From the IMG/VR virus record IMGVR_UViG_3300048598_000131: a stretch of DNA of 64,000 nucleotides; one strand, given 5' to 3'. The notes under the pieces were generated by a model. The model had not been told where the DNA came from, made no database searches, and was given only the letters and a program-made list of their open reading frames with translations. The position numbers were made by a program, and so were the translations under genes. This document shows, piece by piece, positions 1 to 44,627 of this stretch. Every line of letters begins with the position of its first letter. The first letter of the stretch is position 1. Source of the DNA: a virus. Its lineage: Duplodnaviria > Heunggongvirae > Uroviricota > Caudoviricetes.

Positions 1-215
1 GTTATAAGGATGGGTTTGGTATTGATAGGGGAACAAGCACATGTTCGTTCCCGAAAGGGGAGGAGAAAATTCTTTATAAGGATTTGTACTTGGTAGAGGT
101 GAGTTGTGCGCGGTTGACTAGTCAAATGTGCTGGATGGTCTGAGAGTCTAACTAGGATATTTCTTCTGGAAGGGTTGGACGATTTTTCTGCTAATAAATA
201 GAAACTAAGTATATT

Positions 216-650
216 ATGATAAGATATGTTTTAGGATTCATGTTTTTGGACAACGAGCGTGTTGCGTTGATTCGTAAGAAACATCCAAAATGGCAAGAGG
301 GATGTTTAAACGGGATTGGCGGCAAAATCAATGATGGTGAGTTTCCCGACGCAGCAATGCAGCGAGAGTTTAAGGAGGAAACAGGTTTGGATACTTCACA
401 CGTCGGCTGGTATAAATTCTGTGTGATGGGAAATAGCTTGTTTGATTGCAAATGCTATACTGCGCATTGCTCGTTGCACGAGTGGGAGGCTATCGCCACT
501 CAGACCGATGAAGAGGTGGTAAAGCTGCCTATTAGCAAGATTAAGCAGCATAAGTGCATATCCAACGTGCCCTGGCTCGTTGAAATGGCTCTAAATGGCT
601 TGAATCATGATTTTGAGGCTGAAGTGCGCTATCCTTTTGAGAAGGAATAA
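216..650 (+). CDS. NUDIX (MutT-like) hydrolase
   Basis: Nudix box in the translation: GGKINDGEFPDAAMQREFKEETGL fits G-x5-E-x7-REUxEExGU. Preceded by an VALIRKK...W segment typical of Nudix folds. Start could also be the in-frame ATG at 240. Confidence 0.8.
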   Translation: MIRYVLGFMFLDNERVALIRKKHPKWQEGCLNGIGGKINDGEFPDAAMQREFKEETGLDTSHVGWYKFCVMGNSLFDCKCYTAHCSLHEWEAIATQTDEEVVKLPISKIKQHKCISNVPWLVEMALNGLNHDFEAEVRYPFEKE

Positions 651-652
651 TT

Positions 653-937
653 ATGATATATCCATACTCTGTAAATTTAAGCAATGAACAGCTAGTAAAG
701 CTGTTGAAAGATTTAAAGCACCTTGGAGTTGGCGGGCTACTTTCTGTAAGATTTAAAACAGAGAGCGGGCCAATTGAGGCGTTCACAGGTTATGTCTGGC
801 AACTTGATGCAAAGTATGAGCACGTGGTTCTGACGCAGATAGAAGAGCCCTACGCGTCAAAAGACCTTGTGATTAAGGACATTGTTAGCATTCTGTGGCG
901 TGATCCCCTTGTGTTCAACTGTTCAGGCGGCGAATAA
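653..937 (+). CDS. hypothetical protein
   Basis: 94-aa ORF tightly packed after the NUDIX gene (3-nt gap). No recognisable motif. Confidence 0.45.
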   Translation: MIYPYSVNLSNEQLVKLLKDLKHLGVGGLLSVRFKTESGPIEAFTGYVWQLDAKYEHVVLTQIEEPYASKDLVIKDIVSILWRDPLVFNCSGGE

Positions 938-980
938 ATTAAAAATAAATGTTGACAATGACGTAGATAATGTATACATT
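936..980 (+). promoter_or_regulatory. sigma70-type promoter with conserved A/T-rich upstream element (AAATTAAAAATAAATGTTGACA)
   Basis: TTGACA at 952-957. A TACATT -10-like hexamer follows 17 bp later at 975-980. The upstream AAATTAAAAATAAAT element recurs at at least 9 other sites in the window. The downstream ATGTATACATTT is shared with the 11.9-kb copy. Confidence 0.5.
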
Positions 981-1002
981 TTAGTCCAATAAATCTATTT
1001 TT

Positions 1003-1665
1003 ATGCACGAATACAGTAATCAATCAACTCCGGTAGAGCCTACCGAACAAAAAGTTAAAGCCAAAGCACGTAAGGTGCGCAAAACTGCTAAAGTCAGCAA
1101 AGCGCGGAATGCGTGTAAAGCGCGTAATCGATTGCTTGAGCGCACAAGCCGATTGCTTAAGGACTATGCGCAGTTGAAATCGCCATACTATGCGACTTAC
1201 GGTCCAGGTGTCGTTTATCCGGTGTTTAGTATCGTGAAGGTAGCACGAGATATCGCTACGGCAAAGTACGACAATTCTTTTTATCATGAAACTTGGTCGG
1301 ATCACCGTGCCGGGGTTGCTGCTAATGCACAGTCTGCTGTGAGCGAATTAAACGGTGTATTCACTAAGATAGGTAAGCTATCTCGATCATCGGTGGCTTG
1401 GACACCGCAGCATTCATTGTGTGCAACGGTATGTGTTGATCAAACGAATGTAACAGTGCCCTTATTTGCTGTGCACGTGTGTAATTGCGATGGCATAGAC
1501 GGTATCAAGATCGTGATCGGACCATCTGATCTGGCTGCTGAAGCTAACGCAGATAACGATAAGCCCGTGTTCATTCCTTTTACTAAGACAAACTACAAAG
1601 AGGCAATCAACACATTTCGGTTGTGGTGCACGGCTTATCTGTCTAACCTAATCGTAGTATATTAA
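1003..1665 (+). CDS. hypothetical protein, paralog family A (member 1, divergent)
   Basis: The C-terminus IPFTKTNYKEAINTFRLWCTAYLSNL is homologous to the C-termini of the next two ORFs (VPLLLYYTDNDYKSVLSTFRTWLIKYISNLL). Confidence 0.55.
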   Translation: MHEYSNQSTPVEPTEQKVKAKARKVRKTAKVSKARNACKARNRLLERTSRLLKDYAQLKSPYYATYGPGVVYPVFSIVKVARDIATAKYDNSFYHETWSDHRAGVAANAQSAVSELNGVFTKIGKLSRSSVAWTPQHSLCATVCVDQTNVTVPLFAVHVCNCDGIDGIKIVIGPSDLAAEANADNDKPVFIPFTKTNYKEAINTFRLWCTAYLSNLIVVY

Positions 1666-1668
1666 ATC

Positions 1669-2382
1669 ATGAAAAAATCAACAAAGCACAAAATGAATAA
1701 GTGCAACGGAATAACATCGGTTGAGATAGAGCGCATGCTTGAACTCGAAGGAAAAGCGCTTAAGCACACCATCAGTAAGGCTGAACAAGCTGAGCTTGAT
1801 GCACTCAGGGAAAGTCATCCAGATATTGATGCTAACGGATTGAGTGGGTTATACCTGCTTGGGAATCTTATAACAATAAACGCATTAGCAAATCAGTATG
1901 CAGGAAAACATACTGATGAGCGTCAAGAGCCTAAGAGCGAATGCAATGATGGTGACATATATGCTCAAGCTCAGACACGTGCAGCGGCTCGGAATAGCGC
2001 GGCTAGAGCTGAAGAGAAGGCGAAGGCTACCTGGTATGAGGTTAGGCTGGCTATTCAGCGCTATTTGCGCGATTTGGATGGCAAGTCTAGTAAGATCGGT
2101 AAGTTAGGAGTAGCGTTCGATAACGCACCAGATAATGACGAAATTGCTACGTTATACGCTACAAGTTCATGCGGTGAAGGTTTTACACTGTTCACGGTTG
2201 ATGCTACGCGTAATGCTACGAATGAAGGCTTTAAGGTGAGTGCTGGAAACTCCTCCTTGGCTGTATCTGCGAGCGAATATAGCGCTGTTCCTTTGTTGCT
2301 GTATTATACGGATAATGATTATAAGTCAGTGCTGTCTACTTTTAGAACGTGGCTCATTAAGTATATATCAAATCTTTTGTAA
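1669..2382 (+). CDS. hypothetical protein, paralog family A (member 2)
   Basis: 237 aa. The N-terminus MKKSTKHKMNKCNGITSVEIERMLELEGKALKHTISKAEQAELDAL and the C-terminus VPLLLYYTDNDYKSVLSTFRTWL are shared with 2410..3123. Confidence 0.6.
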   Translation: MKKSTKHKMNKCNGITSVEIERMLELEGKALKHTISKAEQAELDALRESHPDIDANGLSGLYLLGNLITINALANQYAGKHTDERQEPKSECNDGDIYAQAQTRAAARNSAARAEEKAKATWYEVRLAIQRYLRDLDGKSSKIGKLGVAFDNAPDNDEIATLYATSSCGEGFTLFTVDATRNATNEGFKVSAGNSSLAVSASEYSAVPLLLYYTDNDYKSVLSTFRTWLIKYISNLL

Positions 2383-2409
2383 TCCTTTAGCATTTTATTT
2401 TTATAAATT

Positions 2410-3123
2410 ATGAAAAAGCGTAATGAAGCAAACAAGTGTAAAGGTATGACAATGACTGAGGCAGAACGTTGGCTTGATCTCGGAATGAAGGAGCTTAAGC
2501 ATACCATCAGTCAGTCTGAGCAGGCCGAACTTGATGCACTCAATAAAAGCTATCCTAGCGCTGACATCAAAGCATTAAGTGCACTAACCTTATTGGTACG
2601 CACTTTGACTGGGGCTGTAGACACAAAAGTAGCGAGTGACTGTCAGTCTCAAGAGCCTAAGAGCGATGAGTCAAATAGTAGCGTATACTCTGATGCTGTG
2701 CAGCGAGCCGCAGACTTTCGGAAGGTGAAACCGACTAATTACACAGTAGGAAGCGTTGTCGAGCTTAAAGTTAGATCGGCTGTTCAGGACTACTTGAAAG
2801 AGCTGGACAATAAATCTGTTATATTTGATAGGCTTAACAAGCTTAGAACGCTTACACCTGAGAGTAACGTGTCTACGACTGAAATTGCTTCGTTGAAGGC
2901 TACAACTTCGTGCGGTGAAGACATTACTCTGTTTATTGTTACGGCTGTGTGCGCGAATGGTAAACAGGGCATTAAGGTGAATGTCGGGCCTACAGACATA
3001 GCAATAGCTTCAAATAATTACAGCGAAGTTCCGCTATTGTTAGTATATACAGACGATGATTATGCGACAATGCTCAGCACTTTTAGAACTTGGCTGGTAG
3101 ATTATGTCGCACGCTTGCTGTAA
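2410..3123 (+). CDS. hypothetical protein, paralog family A (member 3)
   Basis: 237 aa, same length as 1669..2382. Carries the conserved KCKGMTMTEAERWLDLGMKELKHTISQSEQAELDAL and VPLLLVYTDDDYATMLSTFRTWL blocks. Confidence 0.6.
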   Translation: MKKRNEANKCKGMTMTEAERWLDLGMKELKHTISQSEQAELDALNKSYPSADIKALSALTLLVRTLTGAVDTKVASDCQSQEPKSDESNSSVYSDAVQRAADFRKVKPTNYTVGSVVELKVRSAVQDYLKELDNKSVIFDRLNKLRTLTPESNVSTTEIASLKATTSCGEDITLFIVTAVCANGKQGIKVNVGPTDIAIASNNYSEVPLLLVYTDDDYATMLSTFRTWLVDYVARLL

Positions 3124-3153
3124 CGACCTAATAGCTCTATTACATAAAATAGT

Positions 3154-3381
3154 ATGAATATCGATACATTTAAGCCCCTAGTCATTGAGAGACCTGTGCT
3201 AAAGTCTAAAACCGTCGCTTATGGTAATTTAGCCGCTGGCTGCTTCTTTGAAATAGGTAGCGAAGTATTTATTGCCATGGGCTCTGCTGAGAAGGCTTTT
3301 AGCCTTAAGAGTTTTTCAGTTAAGACTCTGCGTATGGACACGCTAGTTCTTCCACTTCGCGGTAGAGTAGTCATAGACTAA
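3154..3381 (+). CDS. small protein, paralog family B (G-VF...LF-AM...AFSL...LV-PL motif), member 1
   Basis: 75 aa. Shares the motif GCFFEIGSEVFIAMGSAEKAFSLKSF...DTLVLPL with the five downstream ORFs. Confidence 0.55.
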   Translation: MNIDTFKPLVIERPVLKSKTVAYGNLAAGCFFEIGSEVFIAMGSAEKAFSLKSFSVKTLRMDTLVLPLRGRVVID

Positions 3382-5507: not shown

Positions 5508-5945
5508 ATGAACGATGTATATAGTTTATACTGCCTATTTGCATATAAGCCTTTTAGCATTGATGAGGATGGAATGATACATCAAGGTGCCTCCATAGTG
5601 CGGCAAGACGTCAGAAAGATGAGTATCATTGAGCATGTTCAGCTTATTCTAAGCGTCAATGCACACTTGGCTAAAGATGAGCTGGGCTTTGGAGAGATTA
5701 AAATTGCACAGAGCCGACACATGTATGTCGAAGGTGATGAAGATGATAACGAATTTGATCCGACAGATTACGGTATGTATTTCTGGTTAAAGGAGTCAAG
5801 CCGTGAATATCAGGAGATCATAGCAGAAGCGAAGGCACGCAATATTGTTCTAGGCCACATAGAAAAAGTTGAAAATGAAATACAGCCTGAAGCTAAAGAG
5901 CGAGCGCTGTACAAACGATTAAAGGAAAAATATGAAGGAAAATAG
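5508..5945 (+). CDS. hypothetical protein
   Basis: 145-aa ORF. Begins YSLYCLFAYKPFS, similar to the start of the next ORF (YLYCIIAYKRNS). Confidence 0.5.
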   Translation: MNDVYSLYCLFAYKPFSIDEDGMIHQGASIVRQDVRKMSIIEHVQLILSVNAHLAKDELGFGEIKIAQSRHMYVEGDEDDNEFDPTDYGMYFWLKESSREYQEIIAEAKARNIVLGHIEKVENEIQPEAKERALYKRLKEKYEGK

Positions 5946-6411
5946 TCTTATCCATGAACCTGCGCCTGATAATAAAGGCCAGTATCTTTACTGTATAATT
6001 GCATATAAGCGCAATAGTGGTTGTATTGACTACGGCTTATATTCTAGTGATAGTATTCTACGTAGGCATATATCAGAGGCTGATGTCACTGCTGAGTGGT
6101 CAAACATAATGTGGATAGATGCACAACGTGAGAATGATGAGGTTGCTTACGAAGATGTCAACATATTAAAGAGCACACGTGCTATTGGTGAGGATGAATT
6201 ATGGGATGACGTTCCTTACGTCTGGTTGAATGGCTACAGCGATGAAGCTAAACGGTTGTACGTAAAGGCGGAAGAGATTTTTGTTCAGAGGATGCAGAAA
6301 GAAAAGGATGAGAAGGCTGCTAGAGAAAAGCAGGAATCGGAGGAAAATATAGCACGTGTGCAGGCCGAAGAAAGGCGTGAATACGAACGGTTAAGAGCTA
6401 AGTTCGAATGA
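5932..6411 (+). CDS. hypothetical protein (paralog of 5508..5945 N-terminal region; Glu/Lys-rich C-terminus)
   Basis: 159 aa. The N-terminal block QYLYCIIAYKRNSGCIDYG resembles that of the preceding ORF. Confidence 0.5.
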   Translation: MKENSLIHEPAPDNKGQYLYCIIAYKRNSGCIDYGLYSSDSILRRHISEADVTAEWSNIMWIDAQRENDEVAYEDVNILKSTRAIGEDELWDDVPYVWLNGYSDEAKRLYVKAEEIFVQRMQKEKDEKAAREKQESEENIARVQAEERREYERLRAKFE

Positions 6412-8011: not shown

Positions 8012-8497
8012 ATGAATATTTTTTCTTGGTTCAAACGAAAGAATCCAAACAGCTTGATTCAGATCGATTATGGTAAGCTCAGCGATCGAGTGCTGAAGGA
8101 CATAGAGAGCAATTTTAGGTTTGAGCCACGCGGGTTTAATTTGAGCGATGCGGATCGAGCCTTTTTAGGCGTTGACATAAAAGTAACAGAGATCACGGCT
8201 TACTACTGCACGCCTGAGACTTCTCTATGGGAAAAGGACCGAAGATGCTATTATTTGTTTGTCGTAGATAAGAGCAGATTTACTGAGACTGTCGGAGGTC
8301 CTATCTACTATATTTCGCCTTACTACACTAGTTTAAGCAATTATCAATTTTCACAGCTGAGATTTCGAGACGCTAAGCAATTGGCGGATTTCACTGCGGC
8401 TATAACGCGCTTGCAGTTTAGGCTTAGCACGAACACAACTAATGCTCACGCTAAGCGCATTCTTAGCTGTTTTCCAGGCGTGGATTATAAGTTATAA
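8012..8497 (+). CDS. hypothetical protein, paralog family C (member 1)
   Basis: MNIFSWFKRKNPNSLIQIDYGKLSDRVLKDIESNF is similar to the start of 8504..8995. Confidence 0.55.
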   Translation: MNIFSWFKRKNPNSLIQIDYGKLSDRVLKDIESNFRFEPRGFNLSDADRAFLGVDIKVTEITAYYCTPETSLWEKDRRCYYLFVVDKSRFTETVGGPIYYISPYYTSLSNYQFSQLRFRDAKQLADFTAAITRLQFRLSTNTTNAHAKRILSCFPGVDYKL

Positions 8498-8503
8498 CTT
8501 AGC

Positions 8504-8995
8504 ATGAATATTTTAGCTCTATTCAAGCGAAAGAAGCTTAGTGTGTCACTTGAGCTTGATTACTGTAAACTCAGTAATCAAGTGATCAAGGACATGGAAG
8601 ACGTGTCCAAGTTTGAGGAGCGTGAATCGGATTTTACAGATAAATTGAAGTCATTCGCAGGTTGTAAAGCCGATTCAGATGCTATATGCCTTTTCTATTG
8701 CAATGTTAATCCGTCCATGTGGCTAAAGTATAGGTGTCCTTACTATTTGATTAGAGTAGACTACAGTTGGAATAGCGAGAGCAGCGATTTTGGATACTAC
8801 ATTGCGCCTGCGTCTCAGACCACGGCTTGCACTGAATTTACTCGGCTTCGTTTTGAGAACGAGGATCATCATAAAGCTTTTGTGACAGCTTTTGATAATG
8901 TATACTTAGCATTATCTAGCAAGCATAACAGCGCTAAGTACAGAGATATTGCAGAATGTTTTCCAGATGTAGTGCATAAAAGCTATGAGCATTAA
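8504..8995 (+). CDS. hypothetical protein, paralog family C (member 2)
   Basis: MNILALFKRKKLSVSLELDYCKLSNQVIKDMEDVS. The two genes have nearly equal lengths (163 and 161 aa). Confidence 0.55.
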   Translation: MNILALFKRKKLSVSLELDYCKLSNQVIKDMEDVSKFEERESDFTDKLKSFAGCKADSDAICLFYCNVNPSMWLKYRCPYYLIRVDYSWNSESSDFGYYIAPASQTTACTEFTRLRFENEDHHKAFVTAFDNVYLALSSKHNSAKYRDIAECFPDVVHKSYEH

Positions 8996-9326
8996 GCTGC
9001 TTGTTTATTTGTATTTAGCGGTCTCTATCATTTTTGAAATGTGTGGAGATTATTGTGTAAAGATTGCGTCTATAAGCGTAGGTAGTAAATCCAAATTTAT
9101 GTGGATTGTATCGCTCGTAGCTTATAATTTTATGCTTATCGCTTGGATGATTGCAGTAAAGTATGCCAAAGTGATTACGATTCCTGGCACTGTTTGACTT
9201 GTATGCGGTCAGATAGCCGTAATAGTCGTAGGCGTGGGCATACTGCATGAACATGTCACGCTAATACAGCTTGTAGGTCTAGGCTTAGCCGTTGTAGGTT
9301 TGGCACTATTAGGATCAACAAATTAA
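8985..9326 (+). pseudogene. SMR-family (EmrE/SugE-like) small multidrug-resistance transporter interrupted by an in-frame TGA at 9195-9197
   Basis: Residues 1-70 (LAVSIIFEMCGDYCVKIAS ... IPGTV) and the in-frame continuation after the TGA (LVCGQIAVIVVGVGILHEHVTLIQLVGLGLAVVGLALLGSTN) together form a 113-aa, 4-TM protein. Its motifs align with SMR proteins: the TM1 Glu, IP.GTAYA.W.G.GAV, and ILLLGE/LLSLGLIVAG. The stop sits in the same frame. It is a UGA followed by C. Confidence 0.5.
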
Positions 9327-9446
9327 CTTTTATTTTAATTTGATTTAACTTTGTGCCGTGCTATAGTAGCAATGATTTAAGACTAGTCCCGTTTCTTCTA
9401 CTGAGGATTGGCCTTAAAACTTTCATAATAATTAATATAACATATA

Positions 9447-9479
9447 AGCTAGCATAGTTAGAAGCTGTGCTAGCTTTTT
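9447..9479 (+). terminator. hairpin + T-run (intrinsic-terminator-like), repeat copy 1
   Basis: AGCTAGCA tagttagaagctg TGCTAGCT, then TTTT. Confidence 0.5.
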
Positions 9480-9598
9480 AGCGTACGACACGGCTTTAAT
9501 TTGACTTAGCTCTGCGTTGTGATACAGTATCATTGCTTAAGGCTAATCTCAACGCTGTTCGTTGAGGGAGTGGCCTTGAAATTACATATATCATATTT

Positions 9599-9634
9599 AA
9601 GCTAGCATGGTGTAGCAATCATGTTAGCTTTTTA
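9599..9634 (+). terminator. hairpin + T-run, repeat copy 2
   Basis: AAGCTAGCATG gtgtagcaat CATGTTAGCTT, then TTT. One G-U pair in the stem. Confidence 0.5.
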
Positions 9635-9728
9635 GTGTACGACACAAATATAATTTGACATTCACTGCGCTTGCTGTAATTTGTAATCATTAAGACTGCA
9701 AGTCCTCGTTAGTCCTAGGCGATAGTTG

Positions 9729-9762
9729 AGCTAGCATAGATCATAAGCTGTGCTAGCTTTTT
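9729..9762 (+). terminator. hairpin + T-run, repeat copy 3
   Basis: AGCTAGCA tagatcataagctg TGCTAGCT, then TTTT. Confidence 0.5.
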
Positions 9763-9848
9763 AGCGTACGCCTTAGTTTCGATTTGACATTCTGTGCACA
9801 CGTGTTACATTCATTTTACTTTTAAGTAGGCCTGCCGACTAATCCGGT

Positions 9849-9886
9849 AGCTAGCATAGTTATAAGCTGTGCTAGCTTTTTCTTTT
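9849..9886 (+). terminator. hairpin + T-run, repeat copy 4 (immediately 5' of the tRNA)
   Basis: AGCTAGCA tagttataagctg TGCTAGCT, then TTTTCTTTTG. Ends 1 nt before tRNA position 1. Confidence 0.5.
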
Positions 9887-9962
9887 GTCTCTATAGCTCA
9901 AATGGATAGAGCACGAGATTTCTAATCTTGTGATTTTGGTTCGATTCCAAATAGAGACACCA
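9887..9962 (+). tRNA. tRNA-Arg (anticodon UCU), CCA encoded
   Basis: Hand-folded cloverleaf. The acceptor stem GTCTCTA pairs with TAGAGAC. The D-arm is GCTC/GAGC. The anticodon stem CGAGA/TCTTG encloses the loop TTTCTAA, giving anticodon TCT. The T-arm is TTTGG-TTCGATT-CCAAA. ACCA is at the 3' end. Length 76 nt. Confidence 0.9.
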
Positions 9963-9965
9963 TCA

Positions 9966-10010
9966 AATTAAAAATAAATGTTGACTACTGTACAGTCTAT
10001 GCTACTGTGT
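9966..10010 (+). promoter_or_regulatory. sigma70-type promoter motif (AATTAAAAATAAATGTTGACT)
   Basis: TTGACT at 9981-9986 with the conserved upstream element. The -10 is unclear. Confidence 0.4.
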
Positions 10011-10091
10011 ATTCATCACATAGCTCTACCCTATCAGGTGTGATTAAACCCGAGCAACTACGCTCGCAAAATGAGCTTGAAAGGAAATGAA

Positions 10092-10910
10092 ATGAAAGTG
10101 CATGTGAAGCAAGACGTGGCCGCAGCAATTCGAGCTGGGATTGAACCAAGTGAACTTACAGAGATCGATTTACCGATCAGTCTTTTAACTGCGGAACAAC
10201 GCGATTATATCGCTGATCGCAGGCATTATGTTTGGCCCGTGACAAAAGGCACCCCTGAGGAGGTGATCGCGGTCCTCGATAAAGATATCGCCGAATATAA
10301 GCGTTGTCAGGCGGAAGCCGAGGCTGAAGTCAAAGTCTGGCTGAAAGAGGCTAAGCCACAGCCAAAGGGGCACAGGAGCGAAGAAGGCATTAGCTGGATG
10401 GAATATGCAGTATACTACCCAAATTGTTATTCGCAAGGTATAGCGGCTTGGGCTGATAAAGAAATGAGTGAGAAAGTGGCTAAGCGCTACGCGGAGCTTG
10501 AGGCAGAGTGCAAGAAGCTTAATGCTGAATCACGTGCAAAGGTTCAGCCGCAGATCGACCGGATTAAAGCTCAGAGGGAAGAACGGGCACGGATTGAGGC
10601 AGAGCATGAGATGTTAGCGACTAAGGCTAAAGAGGAGGAACGCCTTAAGACCGGCATTGTGCGCATTCATTTAGAGCGGGGCACGCGTAGTACTTGGGGA
10701 GAGCCCTGGATTGCTATAGTGATTCCTCAGAACGGTCGTCGCCCAGAGTACGACTTCAGCAAAGGGAAGTACGACGAGACAACAGAGGAGCTGTCGATTC
10801 CGGCCAAGCCCGGTGATGTGATTGCTTATGGCCAGAGAAATTATAAAAAGGCCAGTGACACGATACATCACGTTGTTACCTTCTTAAAAGACGGTTCTTT
10901 TAAGGAATAA
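10092..10910 (+). CDS. hypothetical protein with central Ala/Glu/Lys-rich coiled-coil segment
   Basis: The longest ORF starts at 10071. The in-frame ATG at 10092 is preceded by AAGGAAA (SD, spacer about 5). The region ...AEAEAEVKVWLKEAKPQ...KAKEEERLK reads as coiled-coil. Confidence 0.55.
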   Translation: MKVHVKQDVAAAIRAGIEPSELTEIDLPISLLTAEQRDYIADRRHYVWPVTKGTPEEVIAVLDKDIAEYKRCQAEAEAEVKVWLKEAKPQPKGHRSEEGISWMEYAVYYPNCYSQGIAAWADKEMSEKVAKRYAELEAECKKLNAESRAKVQPQIDRIKAQREERARIEAEHEMLATKAKEEERLKTGIVRIHLERGTRSTWGEPWIAIVIPQNGRRPEYDFSKGKYDETTEELSIPAKPGDVIAYGQRNYKKASDTIHHVVTFLKDGSFKE

Positions 10911-22279: not shown

Positions 22280-23635
22280 ATGCAATCATTTGATATTCAT
22301 ACTTTTGCTTGGCTGGCATTTCTGGCGCCGTTAGGACTATTTTGGCAGCAGGTAAGATCATTTGTGCTACGGCTGCTTGGCATTTTGATTAAGACTAGAA
22401 TGATTGAAGACTATACATTTTCAGAGGTGTACTACGTGTACTTGCACGATAAGTATCCTTGGTATAGGACAGATAATTATAAAATAGCACGTAACGGAGC
22501 ACAGTCTAAGGAATACAAGTGCATGGTTGAAGCGTACTTAAAGCTTCCGACTACTGAGATTATTCTGTATAAGTATTTCATACCTGTAATTGTTAGGGGC
22601 AGAAAAAATCGTGGAGTACAGATAATATATTTTAAATGGACATTTCCTTTTGAAAATCTATTTCGTATCTTAGACAGAGACTATGTAGCTAGCAGAATGG
22701 ATGCGTCTAAAAAGAGGCAAGAATTAAATGGTACAGGTAGAGATAGATTCGAAATAATTACTGAATCAGGTAGTTTAGGCCAAAAGTCTGACGGCCCTAT
22801 GAGCTACGCGGATAAGGCGATAAGAGATAAAGCTGAATCTGTTTCTGAACAGAATAAGACTGATGAAGATGCTGCTATTTTTGGCACGTATTCGGCTATA
22901 AATAGACGAGACACTTGGTGCAGCCTAGGATGGGATGTACTGGATTATGAATATTGTAGCGCTAATCCAGAAAAGGATCGGTTTCAAGAAACACCTGTGG
23001 CCAAAAAGGTGTTTAATCAGCTTAATACGTGGATTAGAGCTAAGCAGTGGTATGGAGAGCGTAATATACCTTGGAGGATAGGCTACATGTTCTACGGTGA
23101 TCCAGGTAATGGCAAGTCCACTCTAGCCGTGGAAATTGCTAAAAGGTTACAAATTTCATTGACCGTGTTTAATCTGCCTAGCATGACCGATTATGATTTT
23201 ATACGCGCGTGTCAAAGGGATGCGTGTAATAATGAAGTAGGTGTAGTGCTATTTGAAGATATAGATACTGTGTTTGAAAAAAGAAAAAATGTTAATGATA
23301 CAAGCATGCAGCATGGTGTGACATTTCAGTGTTTTTCAAACAAGCTAAGTGGTGCAGAAGGAATAAGGAATAGAATTATAATAATGACTGCAAATAATCT
23401 ATCTCAAATAGATCCAGCACTGTTGCGCAAGGGTCGGATAGATGAGCAGTTATTTATTGGACCGTTAACGCAGGCTGAAAAAGCAAAATTTGCTGCTACT
23501 ATTTTTGATGACGCTGAAACTATTCAGCGCGTAGTCAACGAGGGTGTTGACGATACTACAGCTGCGTTTGAATATCGGTGTACGTCAGAAGCACTGAATC
23601 AGTTCTGGAAAAATAAACATGTGGATAATTTATGA
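22280..23635 (+). CDS. membrane-anchored AAA+ ATPase (BCS1-like)
   Basis: N-terminal hydrophobic segment. Walker A GDPGNGKST. Walker B VVLFEDID. Sensor/Arg-finger region MTANNLSQIDPALLRKGRID. Confidence 0.75.
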   Translation: MQSFDIHTFAWLAFLAPLGLFWQQVRSFVLRLLGILIKTRMIEDYTFSEVYYVYLHDKYPWYRTDNYKIARNGAQSKEYKCMVEAYLKLPTTEIILYKYFIPVIVRGRKNRGVQIIYFKWTFPFENLFRILDRDYVASRMDASKKRQELNGTGRDRFEIITESGSLGQKSDGPMSYADKAIRDKAESVSEQNKTDEDAAIFGTYSAINRRDTWCSLGWDVLDYEYCSANPEKDRFQETPVAKKVFNQLNTWIRAKQWYGERNIPWRIGYMFYGDPGNGKSTLAVEIAKRLQISLTVFNLPSMTDYDFIRACQRDACNNEVGVVLFEDIDTVFEKRKNVNDTSMQHGVTFQCFSNKLSGAEGIRNRIIIMTANNLSQIDPALLRKGRIDEQLFIGPLTQAEKAKFAATIFDDAETIQRVVNEGVDDTTAAFEYRCTSEALNQFWKNKHVDNL

Positions 23636-25300: not shown

Positions 25301-28159
25301 ATGGCAATCACTAATAACCTTAAAAAGGGTATAGATTTACCGACATGGGAATGGCTTAGATTTCAACCAGCTGTAAGCACAGCAGGCACAGTAATGTGTA
25401 CTTCAGATGACGGATCTGATCGGTACATCTATTACTTGAATACTACTACATTTTATCGTTATGATGCTTGGACTGACGGCTGGCAAACGCTAGCTCCTGC
25501 CATAACAGCCCCATCGACAGCAGCTTCTTTAAAATATACAGTGTATGGAGGATATCGCGGTAACTGCTTAGGTGCCACGTCTAATACAATTACTATTCCT
25601 GGGTTAAAGAATAACGCGCTTTTAGGTTATAAAATTAGAATTTTGTCAGGGACAGGAATGGGGCAGGAAAGAACTATCTCTAGTATAACCGATGCGACTA
25701 TTCAAGATTCAGGCATTATTACTGCGGGTGGCAACACATCTTTAACCGATAGCACTAAGAAATGGGCAATAAATCAATGGGTTGGATATCAAGTGCGCAT
25801 AGTCATGGGCACAGGTCTTTCTCAGATAAGGAAAGTGTTATATAACGATTCAACTAATATATACTGGTATGATGCTAATTACCAGCAGCTTGAACCCTGG
25901 GCCAATACTACGTTACCTACAGCCTTGTCTGCTACAGCTCCAAACCAAGCTCACTACTATATCGAATCATCAATTGCTACTGTTGATTCTAATTGGACAG
26001 TACAACCTGATGCTTCATCTAGCTTTTGCGTGCTAAGCGGTGGCGTTTGGTATCTCACATCGGCTACAACGACTCCTTACGGTATTCTTTTCTTTTATGA
26101 CGTGGTTAGCGATACTTGGACAACTAAAACAGGTATGTTCGGTGTATTGCCAACATCAGCTTTGACACAAGCAGGTTCTCCAGAATTTCCATTAGAGCGA
26201 ACAGGTGAAGTAGGGGGTGCGTATCTAACAGGCACAGCGACCGCAGCAAGCAATACTGACAGGTCTTTGACTGATTCGTCTAAGGCATTAACCGTGGGAA
26301 TGTACAATAACTATCAAATTCGTATCACAGGAGGTACAGGAATTGGGCAAAGGCGCAGGATAGTTACGTCTACAGCGGATATGTTCTATATTGAATATCC
26401 GTGGGATATCGTTCCAGATACTACTTCAACCTATTCTATTTTTGCGAATGTTGATAATATCTACGTAATGGGTGGATCGAATGGTTCTACTATTTTTAAT
26501 TACTCAGTAGAAAAGGATTTATGGACTTATGGACATGTCATAGATTGTGGCACTGTTACTACCTTTTCTGCGGCTTATGCGGGGCAAGAACCGTTCGGAC
26601 TATCTTCAGGAACACGTAATGCGGGAGGAATTTACACCGTAAATGCAACACCAGTTGCAGCAGGTTCAGGCTATGTTGTAGGAGACCTATTGACATTAAC
26701 TACTGGGGGTTCAAATGGTACTGTTAGAGTTACAGGCATATCAGGACTTGGGGCAATCACATCTGTATCATTATACCGTTGCGGATCTGGTTATTCAACA
26801 GGAACATCAGCAACTTCTGGCGGAACAGGTTCTAGCGCGACAATCAGTATTACAGCGGTTGGTTATACAGGATATCTAACAACAGTCGTAAATCACAATC
26901 TATGTGTGGGAGATTCTGTTGTCATAACGGGTAGTAATGAAACAAATTGGAATAGCACATTCACTCTTATTGGTTGTAACTCTCTTACAACTTTCGAGAT
27001 AGCAATACCTTCGTCTACAGGTTCTGCCGGTCCTAGTACGAATATTACTAGCACAACTATTACTGATTCAACAGCAAGTTGGGCAACGAATGAACTTGCA
27101 GGCTGTATTTGTATGCTTCAGGCACCTGGCACAACGCCAGCCACAGTTTATCAGCGCAGAATTGCAAGTAATGCAGCAACATATCTCACGTTTACCACAA
27201 CAATGGCGTCAAATCCTGTTAGTGGCACTTGGCGTTATGCAATTACGAGGCAATGGGGACTAGGGTCTGACACTCAATATAAGACTGCTAATCAAAGTAA
27301 TACAGGGTTTGCTACAAGTGGAACAACGACTACATTGGTAGATTCTTCAAAAGCTTGGAAAGCAGGTCAATGGCTTGGTTATAAATTAATCGTGGTGTCT
27401 GGCACAGGCTGGGGAACAGGTGAAATAACTATTAATAGTAATTCAACTAATTCTTTAGTTTTTTCTACTCAAACTTTTACACCGGATGCAACTACACGAT
27501 ACATTATTGCAGACGGCTTTGGAACAGCTTCTGCCACAGGTACAACCACAACTTTAATAGATAGCTCTAAAAACTGGATTACCAATCAATGGGCTGGACA
27601 GCAGGTGCGAATGCTCTCTGGAACAGGAGCTGCGCAGTTTTCAACAATTCAAAGCAATACCGCGACAACTTTAACATTTACTGCTGTAACAACAGCACCT
27701 GTGGCCGACACACAATACATGATTCAAGGAGTGCTCCCAAGAGGTGCTGGTTGCAGTAATCAATGGGCCTTTGGCGGGACTGATGCAACTAAAGCAGGTA
27801 AATATCTTTATAGTGCTAGAGGTGGCGGTACTACAGGGTTTGATCGTTATGATATTACGACTAACTTATGGGATATAAACTTATCCGCTTTACCATTAAG
27901 CGAAACGCTCAATACTGGAACAATGGTAGCATATGATGGAGTGAACCGTATTTATTTCACAGTTAATGCCACTGGTCGTGTGCTCTATGTCGATTTGACT
28001 ACGCTAAAGATAGGCTCATTGAGCACAACACCATTTGCTCAGGGCACAGCGCTAACCGGTAATAAAATGGAAATAATTACTACTCCTGATGGCTTGAACT
28101 ATTTGTATGTTATGAGACATACAGGTCAGGAATTCTTCCGAACTCTTATTTTCCTATGA
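25301..28159 (+). CDS. large internally repeated protein (952 aa), probable structural/fibre-like protein
   Basis: At least 5 copies of a roughly 35-aa module T/I-DS-x-K-x-W-x-x-N-Q/E-W/L-x-G-Y/Q-x-x-R-I/M-x-x-G-T-G. Examples: TDSTKKWAINQWVGYQVRIVMGTG, TDSSKALTVGMYNNYQIRITGGTG, VDSSKAWKAGQWLGYKLIVVSGTG, IDSSKNWITNQWAGQQVRMLSGTG. Confidence 0.65.
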   Translation: MAITNNLKKGIDLPTWEWLRFQPAVSTAGTVMCTSDDGSDRYIYYLNTTTFYRYDAWTDGWQTLAPAITAPSTAASLKYTVYGGYRGNCLGATSNTITIPGLKNNALLGYKIRILSGTGMGQERTISSITDATIQDSGIITAGGNTSLTDSTKKWAINQWVGYQVRIVMGTGLSQIRKVLYNDSTNIYWYDANYQQLEPWANTTLPTALSATAPNQAHYYIESSIATVDSNWTVQPDASSSFCVLSGGVWYLTSATTTPYGILFFYDVVSDTWTTKTGMFGVLPTSALTQAGSPEFPLERTGEVGGAYLTGTATAASNTDRSLTDSSKALTVGMYNNYQIRITGGTGIGQRRRIVTSTADMFYIEYPWDIVPDTTSTYSIFANVDNIYVMGGSNGSTIFNYSVEKDLWTYGHVIDCGTVTTFSAAYAGQEPFGLSSGTRNAGGIYTVNATPVAAGSGYVVGDLLTLTTGGSNGTVRVTGISGLGAITSVSLYRCGSGYSTGTSATSGGTGSSATISITAVGYTGYLTTVVNHNLCVGDSVVITGSNETNWNSTFTLIGCNSLTTFEIAIPSSTGSAGPSTNITSTTITDSTASWATNELAGCICMLQAPGTTPATVYQRRIASNAATYLTFTTTMASNPVSGTWRYAITRQWGLGSDTQYKTANQSNTGFATSGTTTTLVDSSKAWKAGQWLGYKLIVVSGTGWGTGEITINSNSTNSLVFSTQTFTPDATTRYIIADGFGTASATGTTTTLIDSSKNWITNQWAGQQVRMLSGTGAAQFSTIQSNTATTLTFTAVTTAPVADTQYMIQGVLPRGAGCSNQWAFGGTDATKAGKYLYSARGGGTTGFDRYDITTNLWDINLSALPLSETLNTGTMVAYDGVNRIYFTVNATGRVLYVDLTTLKIGSLSTTPFAQGTALTGNKMEIITTPDGLNYLYVMRHTGQEFFRTLIFL

Positions 28160-28314
28160 GCATCGATGAACTAGTTCAGATACTAACTAATGAATTAACT
28201 GATCTAATTAACAGGCAACAACTTGCGTTACAACTTGGCGATGTTGATGCCTATACCGAACTAGAGCAAAAGATCGCAGATACTAAGGTTAGTCTGAACA
28301 AACTAAAAAGTTGA
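28156..28314 (+). CDS. possible small coiled-coil protein (52 aa) translationally coupled to the 952-aa gene
   Basis: ATGA start/stop overlap at 28156-28159. Reads MSIDELVQILTNELTDLINRQQLALQLGDVDAYTELEQKIADTKVSLNKLKS. Below the ORF-track size cutoff. Confidence 0.35.
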   Translation: MSIDELVQILTNELTDLINRQQLALQLGDVDAYTELEQKIADTKVSLNKLKS

Positions 28315-32555: not shown

Positions 32556-32834
32556 ATGCAAGAAAAAGTCTATATCACCTACGATGCTTTAACAAAGGGC
32601 ATAGTTTGCGCAAATGCCGAAGTGTGCGGTAGCAATCACGAAGACATTTCTGTGCACATACCATATTCTCTTTATGTAAAGTATTACAAAAAAGGAGATT
32701 GGTTTCGCACGAAGGAGGAGGCCGTAGCTAGAGCCGAAGCAATGCGCAAAAAGCGAATAGCTTTGATTAACCGGCAGTTGGAAAAGTTGTCTAAGCTGGA
32801 TTACAACGTGATCTGTGATCGCACAGTTTCTTAA
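32556..32834 (+). CDS. small protein, paralog family D (member 1)
   Basis: MQEKVYITYDALTKGIVCANAEV...WFRTKEEAVARAEAMRKKRIALINRQLEKLSKL. Confidence 0.55.
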   Translation: MQEKVYITYDALTKGIVCANAEVCGSNHEDISVHIPYSLYVKYYKKGDWFRTKEEAVARAEAMRKKRIALINRQLEKLSKLDYNVICDRTVS

Positions 32835-32875
32835 TCACTTTTGTGCATGCTTAAATAACTTAGAAAGTTTAATCT

Positions 32876-33136
32876 ATGAAAGAAAAATTTTATGTCACGA
32901 ACTATGCCCTAACAAAGGGAATATTGTGTATGACAGGTGAGGTAGACGCTAGCAGACAAGATGTGCTTATTTCGGGTTTTCAATTTTTTCACAAAAATGA
33001 GTGGTTTCGAACGAAGGAGGAGGCTGTAGCTAGAGTTGAAGCTATGCGTCAGGAGAAGATTGAGTCCATTAATCGGCAATTGGCTAAGTTGACTAAAATG
33101 GATGTTACAAAGGTTACAGACACTACTACAGACTAG
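32876..33136 (+). CDS. small protein, paralog family D (member 2)
   Basis: MKEKFYVTNYALTKGILCMTGEV...WFRTKEEAVARVEAMRQEKIESINRQLAKLTKM. Confidence 0.55.
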   Translation: MKEKFYVTNYALTKGILCMTGEVDASRQDVLISGFQFFHKNEWFRTKEEAVARVEAMRQEKIESINRQLAKLTKMDVTKVTDTTTD

Positions 33137-33155
33137 ATACTTATAAATTAGTGCT

Positions 33156-33413
33156 ATGCAAGAAAAAGTTTACATCACGAAGTACGCGCTGACTAAAGGC
33201 ATTTATCATTTATCTGCGGAAATTGATGGAAAGTATGCGCATGCTACATTGCCGGGGGCGCACTTTCCTTCGGTGTTTTCTGCTAGCGAGTGGACTCGTT
33301 CGAAAATAGACGCTGAAGATAGGGCCACTGATATGCGCTGCAAGAAAATTAAGGCTTTAGAAAGAAAAGCAGCTGTGTTAGTTAGGATAAATACAAAAAT
33401 TGTGGAGATTTAA
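33156..33413 (+). CDS. small protein, paralog family D (member 3)
   Basis: MQEKVYITKYALTKGIYHLSAEI... Confidence 0.5.
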   Translation: MQEKVYITKYALTKGIYHLSAEIDGKYAHATLPGAHFPSVFSASEWTRSKIDAEDRATDMRCKKIKALERKAAVLVRINTKIVEI

Positions 33414-34140: not shown

Positions 34141-34494
34141 ATGACATTATTAAATAGTTATACAGATGGAAAGAAACAAGTAACAGCATACATTGTAAAA
34201 GATGCAGTAAACACAGGAATTATATGCGCTACAGGGTGCGTGTATAAAAGGTCTCCGCATACCCTATACGCCGTGGTCAACGGACGAGAATGTGTGTATA
34301 AACAGAGTGAGTGGGACTATTCAAAAGAAGAAGCAGAGAAGAAAGCCTTGCGTTTAAAAACTGATTATCTTCTGAAAGGCCAGAAGATATTAACCACGAA
34401 ACTAGGCCATCTTGTTCGGCTCCAGCAAGAGATCGACGCATTTAAACGGCAACTAAAAACTGTGGAAGATCGGCCTCTATACGCCGCATCCTAA
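34141..34494 (+). CDS. small protein, paralog family D (member 4, divergent)
   Basis: TAYIVKDAVNTGIICATGCV...SEWDYSKEEAEKKALRLK follows the same YxTxxALTKGIxC...W..(S/T)KEEA pattern. Confidence 0.5.
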   Translation: MTLLNSYTDGKKQVTAYIVKDAVNTGIICATGCVYKRSPHTLYAVVNGRECVYKQSEWDYSKEEAEKKALRLKTDYLLKGQKILTTKLGHLVRLQQEIDAFKRQLKTVEDRPLYAAS

Positions 34495-39519: not shown

Positions 39520-39714
39520 ATGACAAATCATATTCTATTAAGCGTGAATAACGCGATTAAACGTTGTAAAATACTCGCAGTTATCGATGACTATTACCTG
39601 GTTAAAGTCGGTAACGGATTAAATAGATTCAGAGTATATTGCGACGGATTCACAAGTTATAAGGAATATTCAGATTTGCCACATAGGTGGCAGCGAGCAA
39701 TTAAGACAGTATGA
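39520..39714 (+). CDS. hypothetical small protein
   Basis: 64 aa. Overlaps the thyA start (ATGA). Confidence 0.4.
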
Positions 39715-41098: not shown

Positions 41099-43495
41099 TT
41101 GATGTTTGCGAGTAATGCCTACTATCAGTACGTTGATGCACACGGGCGCCTAATCTTTGTATCTGGCGGAAGTCTCATAGACAAAGGGGATTGGACGGCC
41201 TTGTCAGATTATGCGTACGGAAATGTAGTAGCTTACTCAGATAATCTTTATGTTGCTTTAGGGACAATTAGTGCACCTGGATCAACACCGGCGGCTTTAA
41301 CCTACGGTTACACAGATAATCCACTGTGGGCTGAGCTAACGTTAAAGATGGTGAGTGTTCCATCCACAGGTGGAACTACGGTTACACCGCCTACTACAGC
41401 TGTTAGTAGCTTAGATACGGGAGCTGTCTATCAGATTGTAAATGGCTATGGAATATCGAAGTACATATCTGGTAGTAATGTAACACTAAAGGGACCTTGG
41501 GACACTACGGTATCTTACATTGTAAATGACGCTGTAATTTACAACGGTGTTATTCTTGTGTGCGTAGTTCCTGTATCTCCTCCACAGACTTATCCTTATT
41601 TAGGCGTCTATGGCACAGGTAACTTTACTTATTGGTCTTATCTTACATTGACTAGCTACACTAGCTCGTCAGTGCTAGTAACCGGGTACACTGCTTATCA
41701 GAGCCAAGTTGTACTAGGTGGTCCTACTGGTCCAACAGGCTATACAGGCTACACAGGTTCATCTGGTGATCAGGGTTCGACGGGTTTTACCGGCTATACA
41801 GGATATACGGGTCCATTGGGATTCACAGGTTACACAGGCTATACTGGACCTTTTGGCTTGGGTGACACAGGATATACAGGATACACTGGAACTACGGGAC
41901 CTCAGGGCATACCTGGAATTCAAGGCTCAACCGGTTATACAGGTTACACAGGACCACAAGGTCAAGATTCTACAGTAACGGGTTATACGGGATTTACAGG
42001 CTACACGGGTTCTCCAGGAACTAATGGAATTCAAGGTTCAACCGGTTATACAGGGTACACCGGTCCTACTGGACCTGGAAATTTTACAGGTTACACTGGC
42101 TATACAGGCGTTTCTGGATCACAGGGATCCACAGGTTACACAGGATTTACAGGTCCACAGGGAAACCAAGGTAATCAAGGTTTAATCGGTTACACTGGAT
42201 TTACAGGATATACTGGAAGTCAAGGTGGAGTAGGCAGCACAGGCTACACTGGCTATCAAGGTCCTACAGGATACACTGGTTATACTGGTCCACAAGGTAT
42301 TCAGGGTGTAACAGGGTATACCGGCTACACAGGATATACCGGAAGAACGGGTTACACAGGGTACACCGGACCTACAGGCGTTACAGGATACACAGGGTAC
42401 ACTGGACCGTCTGGAAGTAACGGTAGTCAAGGGACTACCGGTTATACAGGTTACACTGGAAATCAAGGATCCACGGGCTATACAGGATATACTGGTCCAA
42501 CAGGAACTGCTTCGAATGTAACGGGTTACACTGGATATACCGGTCCGCAGGGATCATCCTATACGGGTTACACAGGATATACTGGTGGATTAGGGAGCAC
42601 AGGACAGACCGGTTACACCGGTTATACTGGCCCGGCAGGACTAGCATCCACTGTAACTGGATACACTGGCTATACGGGACCTTCAGGCAGCAATGGAAGT
42701 CAGGGCACTACCGGTTATACGGGATATTCAGGTTCATCAGGCACTACGGGATATACAGGCTACACCGGTCCTTCAGGAAGTAACGGTAGTCAAGGTTCAA
42801 CAGGCTACACAGGTTACACAGGACCTGCTGTAACAGGCTATACCGGTTTTACAGGTCCAGCTTCTACAGTAACAGGATATACTGGCTACACGGGATATAC
42901 CGGTAGGACAGGTTATACAGGATACACTGGTCCACAAGGACAAACAGGATATACGGGTTATACTGGTCCAACGGGTGCTGCTTCTACTATTACAGGATAC
43001 ACTGGATACACGGGCTACACAGGTTCGTCTGGAGCTGCATCTACGATTACTGGTTATACAGGTTACACTGGGCCTTCAGGTAGTAACGGAAGCCAGGGCA
43101 ACACAGGATATACGGGTTATACAGGATACGCGTCAACAGTTACGGGTTATACCGGTTACACAGGCCCACAAGGATTAGCCTCTACAATAACAGGGTATAC
43201 CGGTTATACCGGTTCTCAAGGTGGCATAGGTTCTACGGGATATACAGGTTACACAGGTTCATCTGGTAATACTGGTTCATCCGGTTCAACTGGTTACACA
43301 GGGTACACAGGATATACAGGACCACAAGGGATAGCTTCCACCATAACTGGATACACAGGATACACCGGAATATCAGGTTCAACTGGCTATACTGGCTATA
43401 CAGGTCCTCAGGGTCCAACCGGTCCAAGCGGCTCAGGCGGATCAGGCGACGTAACAGCAGCCTATGTGGCTGCGATTGCAATTGCACTAGGATAA
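41099..43495 (+). CDS. collagen-like triple-helix-repeat protein (Gly-Tyr-Thr triplets), fibre protein 1
   Basis: About 200-aa N-terminal non-repeat domain (..[16 protein letters not shown]..). Then about 600 aa of uninterrupted G-X-Y triplets, dominated by [20 protein letters not shown]. Confidence 0.75.
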
Positions 43496-43499
43496 ATCT

Positions 43500-44627
43500 A
43501 TGAATTACGACGGAGCTACTGGCTACACAGGTTATACAGGTTACACTGGCCCTTCAGGAGGACCGGCAGGACCTCGCGGAGTAGACGGTCCAACAGGTTA
43601 CACTGGCTACACAGGTCCACAAGGCGCTACAGGTCCAGGTTATACGGGGCCTCAAGGAGCCATGGGGCTAAAAGGCACTACGGGCTATACGGGCTATACT
43701 GGTGCATCTGGCTCGGACGGCAGAAGCTATACAGGTCCTCAAGGCGTCCAAGGAGGGACTGGCTATACAGGTTATACAGGATACACTGGATCAACTGGAT
43801 CAACAGGTCCAGGCTATACAGGTCCACAGGGACCAGCCGGATTAAAAGGAAGCACTGGTTACACTGGCTATACCGGCGCAGCAGGCAGAGATGGTGCTAG
43901 CTATACAGGTTACACAGGACCTCAAGGCCTAAGGGGATTTACAGGCTATACGGGTTACACTGGAGTAGGCGGCGTCACCGGTTACACAGGCTACACAGGT
44001 CCAATGGGAATTATGGGGAGTAGAGGATACACTGGCCCTCAGGGCGATACCGGCTACACCGGTTATACTGGCTATACTGGAAGTAGAGGGCTGTCCGTGA
44101 CTGGCTACACTGGCTATACAGGTCCTAGTGGCACAGTAGGCACGACAGGCTCACAAGGCACTACGGGCTATACCGGCTACACAGGTTCAGCCTCTACAGT
44201 CACTGGCTATACGGGTTACACAGGCCCGCAGGGCATAATAGGCAAGGGTGGTAGTCAAGGTCCTGTCGGTTATACTGGATACACTGGTTATACCGGCCAA
44301 TCTGGTGACATGGGTCCACGTGGATTTACAGGATATACCGGTTACACTGGTCCTAAGGGACCAGCAGGTGGTGGAATACGCGGTGTAAGCGGCGTTATTG
44401 ATTTGGACACGTCTTCTGTATCGGGCAGCTTCAGCGTAGCCGTTGATTTTAGCACATTAACGTCTGTAGTGCTTACAGTAGCACGGCCACATGGATCTTC
44501 GGTTATTTATGCCAATCTGGATAGCTCTGCCACGTATTATAGTAATGGTTCTATCGTCGTAGGCTACGATCTAAGCGCACTTCCAGCAACAGATGCCTAT
44601 CGTCTGCATTATGTGATTTTAGCTTAA
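43500..44627 (+). CDS. collagen-like triple-helix-repeat protein, fibre protein 2
   Basis: G-X-Y triplets for about 290 aa. The C-terminal roughly 85-aa non-collagen domain is [12 protein letters not shown]...YRLHYVILA. Starts 4 nt after the previous collagen-like gene. Confidence 0.75.

Follow-up and report, generated by a model that had tools for sequence, protein, structure and literature searches.

The window analysed here is a stretch of 64,000 nucleotides (nt) of viral DNA from one IMG/VR record (IMGVR_UViG_3300048598_000131), and all coordinates below follow its numbering. The gene in question encodes a protein resembling those of the SMR (small multidrug resistance) family and is interrupted by an in-frame TGA. 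An ATG at 8985 on the plus strand starts an open reading frame (ORF) of 70 codons, which is terminated by the TGA at 9195-9197; the base that follows, at 9198, is a C. Past this TGA, the frame stays open for 42 further codons up to a TAA at 9324-9326, and the read-through product is 113 amino acids (aa) long, with MSIKLLVYLYLAVSIIFEMCGDYCVKIASISVGSKSKFMWIVSLVAYNFMLIAWMIAVKYAKVITIPGTV before the TGA and LVCGQIAVIVVGVGILHEHVTLIQLVGLGLAVVGLALLGSTN after it. The sequence is, in all these points, as it was described in an earlier note on the same DNA, which had claimed an ORF with an in-frame TGA-C and a 113-aa product on read-through.

The SMR-like ORF shares its first 11 nt with the 3' end of the gene upstream of it (8504-8995). 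Its N-terminal segment of 70 codons (8985..9194, plus strand) comprises the first transmembrane helix (TM1) with E18 and D22, TM2 with Y47 and W54, and the beginning of TM3, ITIPGTV. The TGA itself (9195..9197), followed by the C at 9198, stands where the homologues have TGG, the codon for a near-invariant Trp of TM3. The C-terminal segment (9198..9326), of 42 codons and the TAA, holds the remainder of TM3, a loop with the conserved E89, and TM4 with G98, and needs read-through of the TGA for its translation.

Continuity of the gene across the stop codon

A family hidden Markov model (HMM) was built from 31 relatives, with the sequence of the window left out, and both halves of the interrupted gene were found to match it. 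The N-terminal 70 aa score 69.2 bits over profile positions 2-65, and the C-terminal 42 aa score 32.4 bits over positions 67-104. The second half had been assigned to TM3 and TM4 in the earlier note, and it does align to this part of the family. The TGA corresponds to profile position 66, exactly between the matches of the two halves. At this position, Trp is found in 102 of the 122 relatives (84%), Tyr in 7 and Phe in 6.

The closest homologue, P0002, was the only intact one recovered in a word-indexed search of 5.8 billion proteins. It is 50% identical to the read-through product over 109 residues, and the ungapped alignment spans the stop. Around the stop it reads ITIPGTVWLVCGQ (ITIPGTV-W-LVCGQ), and its DNA, at locus L001, has TGG and then C. 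Judged against this homologue, the lesion is a single G-to-A transition (TGG to TGA), because the codon there is TGG-C. The C-terminal 42 codons are 49% identical to P0002 and hold no additional stop or frameshift. Furthermore, the near-invariant downstream residues G83, E89 and G98 are all kept, and the ORF ends at the usual length of the family. The same search also showed the 70-aa fragment to be identical to a database protein, P0001, which comes from one JGI contig of 99,354 bp. In tblastx comparisons with four independent loci (L001, L002, L005 and L010), single high-scoring segment pairs cross the stop unbroken. Going by these comparisons, the continuity of the reading frame across the TGA is not a product of chance.

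The stop was also looked for in other members of the family. An exhaustive search with HMMER through 1.84 billion cluster representatives yielded 123 matches at E<=1e-3, of which 23 reach E<=1e-10; nearly all of the matched proteins are 100-115 aa long. No family protein among the 123 ends at the Trp codon, except the window's own fragment. A stop at this codon occurs in none of the 122 relatives and in none of the seven loci examined (L001, L002, L003, L004, L005, L007 and L010), all of which are intact. Four proteins were considered as further truncated pseudogenes and rejected. P0005 is an artefact of the start chosen by the gene caller, the gene at L004 being intact, and none of P0013, P0037 and P0099 starts or ends at the Trp codon. 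Degenerate DNA patterns with either TGG or TGA at the codon gave no match in metagenome contigs and one true match, with TGG, in viral contigs; two matches in genome contigs were both due to chance.

Fold of the protein and standing of its clade

With PF00893 (Multi_Drug_Res; TCDB 2.A.7.1), the read-through product of the window scores 22.5 bits (E=1.7e-4) against a gathering threshold of 23.7, and the trimmed P0002 scores 28.4 bits, which is above the threshold. Among 32 clade members, 17 match PF00893 at E<=0.01. When a clade profile was compared with the PDB, it found Gdx-Clo at E=5e-5 (8vxu) and E=2e-4 (6wk5), and EmrE at E of about 0.01-0.1. The AlphaFold2 model of P0002, which is the homologue and not the window protein, has a mean pLDDT of 83.6 and shows four helices after a spurious N-terminal extension. 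When this model was searched against the PDB with Foldseek, the top 11 matches were all Gdx-Clo or EmrE chains, with probabilities of 0.99-1.00 and TM-scores of 0.68-0.77. The SMR fold is supported by way of the predicted structure of the homologue, since its top 11 structural matches are all Gdx-Clo or EmrE; the support from the window protein's own sequence is weak. The four-helix, SMR-family-like gene of the earlier note can, therefore, be retained on the strength of these SMR-only matches and of the clade profile, which finds Gdx-Clo at E=5e-5.

In the profile alignment, the TM1 Glu is present, with E18 corresponding to E13 of Gdx-Clo and E14 of EmrE. In a similar manner, K26 corresponds to the TM1 Lys, and Y47 and W54 to Y40 and W45 of EmrE. 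The TGA codon falls on the binding-site Trp of TM3 (W62 of Gdx-Clo, W63 of EmrE) and not on the Tyr switch. In the earlier note, the stop had been aligned with a conserved TM3 aromatic position, Tyr or Trp. This is right for the Trp, found in 102 of the 122 relatives and encoded by TGG-C in the homologue, but not for the Tyr switch. An alternative alignment of the Trp to Y60 of EmrE would leave the binding-site Trp missing. In the window product, this Trp exists only when the TGA is decoded as Trp.

According to a review of the family, the Tyr switch (Y60) shows nearly perfect conservation across all subtypes, and a GXG fulcrum is present in the subtypes Gdx, Qac and polyamine (PMC9574504). 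In the window, the Tyr-switch position holds a Gly (G68, from 'PGTVW'), and so it does in 95 of the 122 relatives. The GXG fulcrum is absent, as the window has L72-V73-C74-G75 where EmrE has S64-G65-V66-G67, and the last Gly alone is common to both. Even the Glu at the TM1 site is found in just 35 of the 122 relatives, and an acidic residue (D or E) four positions further on, in the motif 'G[DE]Y..K' (D22 in the window), in 105. The NCBIfam subtype models (MdtJ, QacG/J/H, EbrA/B, ArnE) gave 10-21 bits against cut-offs of 92-210, so that no subtype was matched; the best scores were 20.6 for MdtJ (cut-off 122), 19.6 for QacG (cut-off 200) and 15.5 for ArnE (cut-off 92). Because the Tyr switch and the GXG fulcrum are missing and the subtype scores lie far under the cut-offs, the protein is filed here as one with an SMR fold that belongs to an uncharacterised clade and to none of the four subtypes described so far (Gdx, Qac, polyamine MdtIJ and lipid ArnEF). 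The labels 'EmrE/SugE-like' and 'efflux', which the earlier note had attached to the gene, go too far for a protein that lacks both hallmarks and fits none of the four subtypes.

Compared with the well-studied SMR proteins Gdx-Clo/SugE and EmrE (PDB 6wk5, 8vxu, 7mgx), the clade shares a length of about 110 aa, four TM helices, the TM1 Glu, the TM2 Tyr and Trp, the TM3 Trp site, a Gly-rich TM4 and balanced Lys/Arg (3 vs 3). Unlike them, it has Gly instead of the Tyr switch, a GXG motif reduced to a single Gly and an extra conserved acidic residue, D22, and the window copy is interrupted by the stop. The charge balance was counted with helix boundaries set by eye: three Lys and Arg residues lie in the N-terminus, loop 2 and C-terminus together, and three in loops 1 and 3. 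No second SMR-like gene adjoins this one in the window. The protein is probably a dual-topology homodimer, since its Lys and Arg residues are balanced and a partner gene is lacking. An apparent SMR gene pair at another locus, L009, was dismissed, as its members are not homologous.

The clade can be recognised by a signature of its own, SILFE..GDY.VK in TM1, YN.ML.AW in TM2, I.IPGT.WL..GQ in TM3 and F.E.LT..Q..G before TM4. Its loop Glu is found in 119 of the 122 relatives and the acidic residue of G[DE] in 105, and both are thus more common than the canonical TM1 Glu (35 of 122). Such a pattern may mark an undescribed subtype of the SMR family. The clade is rare, with about 120 representatives among 1.84 billion, and is spread over chromosomes, mobile elements and two other viral contigs. 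It recurs on phages and mobile elements and, with an SMR fold that lacks the Tyr switch and the GXG fulcrum and has an extra conserved acidic residue in TM1, is a candidate fifth SMR subtype.

The loci that carry clade copies differ widely. The copy at L001 adjoins a tyrosine recombinase, that at L003 lies on a 47-kb phage-like contig with an intein-containing large terminase, and that at L005 belongs to an element that also encodes a serine recombinase and a Rep protein. The copy at L007 is found in a bacterial chromosome, near rpoBC, trmD and rpsP, and that at L010 on an IMG/VR viral contig. All five copies are intact, with TGG at the codon, and the viral ones among them are those at L003 and L010. 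The SMR-like gene is the sole gene common to these loci and the window. Such a distribution fits a mobile, dispensable accessory gene, because each locus offers a different and unrelated context.

Two of these loci have further features. At L001, the tyrosine recombinase (2-601, minus strand), which has a Phage_int_SAM_4 N-terminal domain, is divergent from the SMR-like gene (817-1146, plus strand), and a palindrome, GAGTTGCAACTC, follows the stop of the latter. The arrangement, on a contig of just 1.2 kb, recalls that of an integron integrase and the first of its cassettes. At L003, the large terminase (502-3183, minus strand) is split by an intein with a LAGLIDADG endonuclease domain.

SMR genes on phages are already known. 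Canonical EmrE-like genes are found in 80 of 50,697 GenBank phage records, and PHROG 1395 ('QacE') covers such genes; the clade of the window matches it at E=0.004. A tblastn search of the same 50,697 records with the clade protein gave no match. The earlier note's view that a phage-borne SMR gene is uncommon is borne out by the count of records, but the kind as such is no novelty. The known genes, from lambdoid E. coli, Acinetobacter and Listeria phages, are likewise small SMR-type accessory genes of tailed phages; unlike the gene of the window, they are of the canonical Qac/EmrE type and intact.

Reading of the TGA

TGA is a rare but ordinary stop in the window, where it terminates 5 of the 50 long ORFs and, in a greedy gene set, 8 of 94 ORFs. 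The long ORFs hold 258 TGG codons (1.6% of codons) and zero TGA. No other gene in the 64 kb is split by a TGA, and at the one other plus-strand TGA between same-frame ORFs (34680), the two parts are two genes, each with its own ATG. A genome-wide recoding of TGA, as in code 4, was rejected on the lone internal TGA in 64 kb against 258 TGG. A search for a suppressor tRNA with ARAGORN and Rfam over the window, along with a permissive scan of 9300-10100, found only a tRNA-Arg(TCT) at 9887-9962. A weak 10-bp hairpin with three G-U pairs has the UGA in its 5' arm, and the 111-nt region around the UGA folds no better than shuffled controls (z = -1.05). Selenocysteine was rejected too, as no hairpin occurs at the distance of a selenocysteine insertion sequence (SECIS) and the homologues have Trp, Tyr or Phe at the site.

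Frameshifting was considered at GUU UGA C, which is superficially similar to the prfB shift site, CUU UGA C (PMC5289835). The +1 frame stops after six codons (GAC TTG TAT GCG GTC AGA TAG), the -1 frame encodes a hydrophilic peptide that is not SMR-like, and no Shine-Dalgarno-like stimulator is present upstream of the site. Re-initiation for a split protein was likewise rejected, as the only in-frame downstream start, GTG at 9234, would yield 30 aa, that is, TM4 alone. Of the features expected of programmed read-through, constraint on the downstream part is present (32.4 bits) and conservation of the stop in relatives is absent. The earlier note had raised programmed read-through as one option, and for the 'programmed' part no positive evidence was found: the stop is unique among 122 relatives and seven loci, and comes without a suppressor tRNA, structure or recoding.

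The best explanation, to which a somewhat better than even chance is given, is that a dispensable accessory gene has recently acquired a nonsense allele, TGG to TGA. This 'moron' gene, which codes for a four-helix SMR-like protein in an otherwise orphan tailed phage, would have lost the near-invariant Trp codon of TM3 through a single transition, G to A. Translation that terminates normally would then leave a fragment of 70 aa that comprises two and a half helices. As such a fragment is expected to be unable to form the SMR fold, the allele would be essentially null or a strong hypomorph. That the 42 codons after the stop show no decay suggests a recent mutation. Only the Trp codons and two Gln codons of the gene can turn into stops by a transition, which is in keeping with this reading. 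Full-length protein, if made at all, would be owed to tRNA-Trp, which would decode the UGA as an ordinary near-cognate codon and so put back the native Trp. The UGA-C context would favour such misreading, and the read-through, presumably at trace level, would be a by-product of the general leakiness of UGA and not of a dedicated signal.

In bacteria, UGA-C is a documented weak terminator, and UGA is known to be misread by tRNA-Trp in both E. coli and B. subtilis (PMC5289835). Bacterial read-through amounts to 1e-3 to 1e-2 at the basal level and to about 10% under stress (PMC10057733). The leaky context and the decoding by tRNA-Trp that the earlier note had invoked are, thus, documented (PMC5289835), but the E. 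coli rules may not apply in the host of this phage. The A1 protein of coliphage Q-beta and leaky UGA mutants provide known cases (Weiner and Weber 1973 and Engelberg-Kulka 1981, as cited in PMC5289835). Q-beta A1 and the leaky UGA mutants of E. coli and Salmonella resemble the window in their in-frame UGA, weak context, downstream coding sequence and predicted Trp (PMC5289835). In Q-beta, however, the stop ends a complete and functional coat protein, and the extension is conserved and required. By this comparison, a leaky nonsense mutant seems a better match for the stop of the window than a programmed signal does, because this stop lies inside an obligatory helix, is conserved in no relative and yields a short product that is unlikely to be functional.

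Certain observations do not sit easily with a plain nonsense allele. The gene is otherwise perfectly preserved, with G83, E89, G98 and the family-length end all in place, and this is equally expected for a gene that functions through read-through. Moreover, 42 single-base nonsense changes are possible in the gene, and Trp-to-TGA changes, the sole type after which read-through gives back the native protein, make up 7-18% of the mutational weight, according to the transition bias assumed. This share mildly favours a filter that tolerates leaky alleles, at most by about 5-14-fold. The 8 TGA-ended ORFs include 5932-6411, 22280-23635, 25301-28159, 28156-28314, 39520-39714 and 47116-47376. It was also observed that a TAA or TAG follows within 6 codons in frame in 6 of these 8, vs 23 of the 86 ORFs ended by TAA or TAG (Fisher p=0.0098, with the threshold picked after viewing the data; Mann-Whitney p=0.046). 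Such back-up stops give a hint that UGA may be leaky in the host. Lastly, in the consensus of a single genome, a real mutation looks the same as a consensus error.

This last point leads to the rival that the population carries TGG and that the A at 9197 is a sequencing or assembly error of the consensus or a minority, low-frequency allele. The contig comes from a single metagenomic assembly and was seen once among about 15 billion proteins, and in a gene without other decay, a one-base substitution is the smallest possible lesion. Consensus substitution errors are rare in assemblies, however, and no comparable interruption is seen in the other genes of the 64 kb, so that an artefact or minor variant is considered unlikely, though it is the strongest of the rivals. 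More doubtful still is a read-through kept by selection, in which the UGA-C would be retained and the tRNA-Trp of the host would insert the native Trp in a small fraction of cases, giving a low and possibly stress-responsive dose of a maybe toxic membrane protein, along with the 70-aa fragment. The weakness of UGA-C, the misreading tRNA-Trp (PMC5289835) and the rates of 1e-3 to 1e-2, or about 10% under stress (PMC10057733), would allow it. The stop coincides with a Trp codon, and read-through thus restores the wild-type sequence; the downstream part is fully conserved (32.4 bits); such a nonsense change has a share of just 7-18% by chance; and the TGA stops of the window tend to have back-ups. 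Against this stand the absence of the stop from all 122 relatives and all seven loci, two viral ones included, and the lack of a stimulatory structure or SECIS-like hairpin (z = -1.05). Rules of context from E. coli may not hold in the host, and one genome cannot show maintenance. No transporter of a bacterium or phage is known to be dosed by read-through. It is rather improbable that the UGA-C at the binding-site Trp codon acts as a maintained 'dosage valve', through which condition-dependent read-through by tRNA-Trp would supply traces of the native transporter, with the back-up stops reflecting an unusually leaky UGA in the host.

Two further readings have very little in their favour. UGA could mean Trp by design, in a host with code 4 or by a phage suppressor tRNA encoded outside the window; the window is 64 kb of a 99-kb contig, such a tRNA might lie in the remaining ~35 kb, and a TGA that does not terminate would likewise be expected to give short gaps up to the following TAA or TAG. 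The gene is, nevertheless, alone in the 64 kb in having an internal TGA, vs 258 TGG in the long ORFs, the parts at the other same-frame TGA are distinct genes, the window has only a tRNA-Arg(TCT), and a code-4 lineage at 42% GC would hold many TGA Trp codons, all of which makes the idea very improbable. Hardly any weight is likewise given to a function of the 70-aa fragment itself, for instance as a poison or modulator of a host SMR dimer, or to a frameshift product from GUU-UGA-C. The fragment does retain TM1 and TM2 with the conserved acidic residues, and the site is superficially like CUU UGA C of prfB (PMC5289835). The +1 frame, however, ends after 6 codons, the -1 product is hydrophilic and unlike SMR proteins, a Shine-Dalgarno-like stimulator is missing, the 32-bit homology lies in the zero frame only, and no relative is naturally truncated at the site.

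Should the stop be no more than a nonsense allele, as favoured here, the finding is an ordinary one of a phage accessory gene lost or silenced, and the gene should be annotated as a pseudogene. The locus, whose native sequence would be given back by read-through, also offers a clean natural system for testing how UGA is read as Trp. Evidence that the stop is maintained would make the gene a rare case, from a bacterial virus, of expression tuned by an internal leaky stop.

The phage and its other features

The window belongs to the genome of a tailed phage, with collagen-like tail fibres, giant ORFs and a tape-measure-like protein. The latter is 40% identical to that of the cyanophage Pam2 of Pseudanabaena, the sole match to GenBank phages at the protein level; megablast found no DNA-level match to GenBank phages. 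Scans of IMG/VR, metagenomes and GTDB with the protein and with alignments yielded no relative of the phage. Scans of IMG/VR with three other phage proteins returned only the queries themselves, and so did a search of the 5.8 billion proteins with the adjacent gene.

A Shine-Dalgarno-like core is present upstream in just 12 of 84 genes, and the regions before the starts are A/T-rich (for example, at 216, 1003, 8012, 8504 and 8985). Bacteroidota and cyanobacteria are among the hosts in which Shine-Dalgarno motifs are typically scarce. The upstream regions thus suggest a host with Shine-Dalgarno-independent initiation, which might belong to one of these groups. The enterobacterial framing that the earlier note had given to the stop context is not backed by anything observed here: no GenBank phage matches at the DNA level, the one protein match is to a Pseudanabaena cyanophage, and just 12 of 84 genes have a Shine-Dalgarno-like core.

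Directly upstream of the SMR-like gene lie two tandem paralogues (8012-8497 and 8504-8995) of about 160 aa, whose similar N-termini read MNIFSWFKRK… and MNILALFKRK…. A second group of three or four genes, of 85-117 aa and with a common motif, 'EKVYITxYALTKGI', is found at 32556-33413 and 34141-34494. Neither group matched Pfam or PHROG, and the 163-aa protein has no homologue among the 5.8 billion proteins. Further along, collagen-repeat tail-fibre genes (41099-44627), which lie in a local GC peak of about 50% vs 42% elsewhere, are followed by two giant neighbouring ORFs at 48828-57011 (2727 aa) and 57023-61003 (1326 aa).

Between the SMR-like gene and the tRNA-Arg(TCT) lies a 560-nt spacer (9327-9886), made up of about four tandem units of 130-160 nt. 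A promoter-like TTGAC-N16-TAnAGT is present in three of them (9340-9367, 9501-9528 and 9784-9811), and a fourth TTGACA was noticed by eye near 9655. The spacer matches no Rfam family. Each unit closes with a near-identical terminator hairpin, AAGCTAGCA…TGCTAGCTTTTT, at 9446-9480, 9599-9630, 9730-9762 and 9849-9881. The units are possibly a battery of short transcription units, which might encode small RNAs or be decayed tRNA cassettes.

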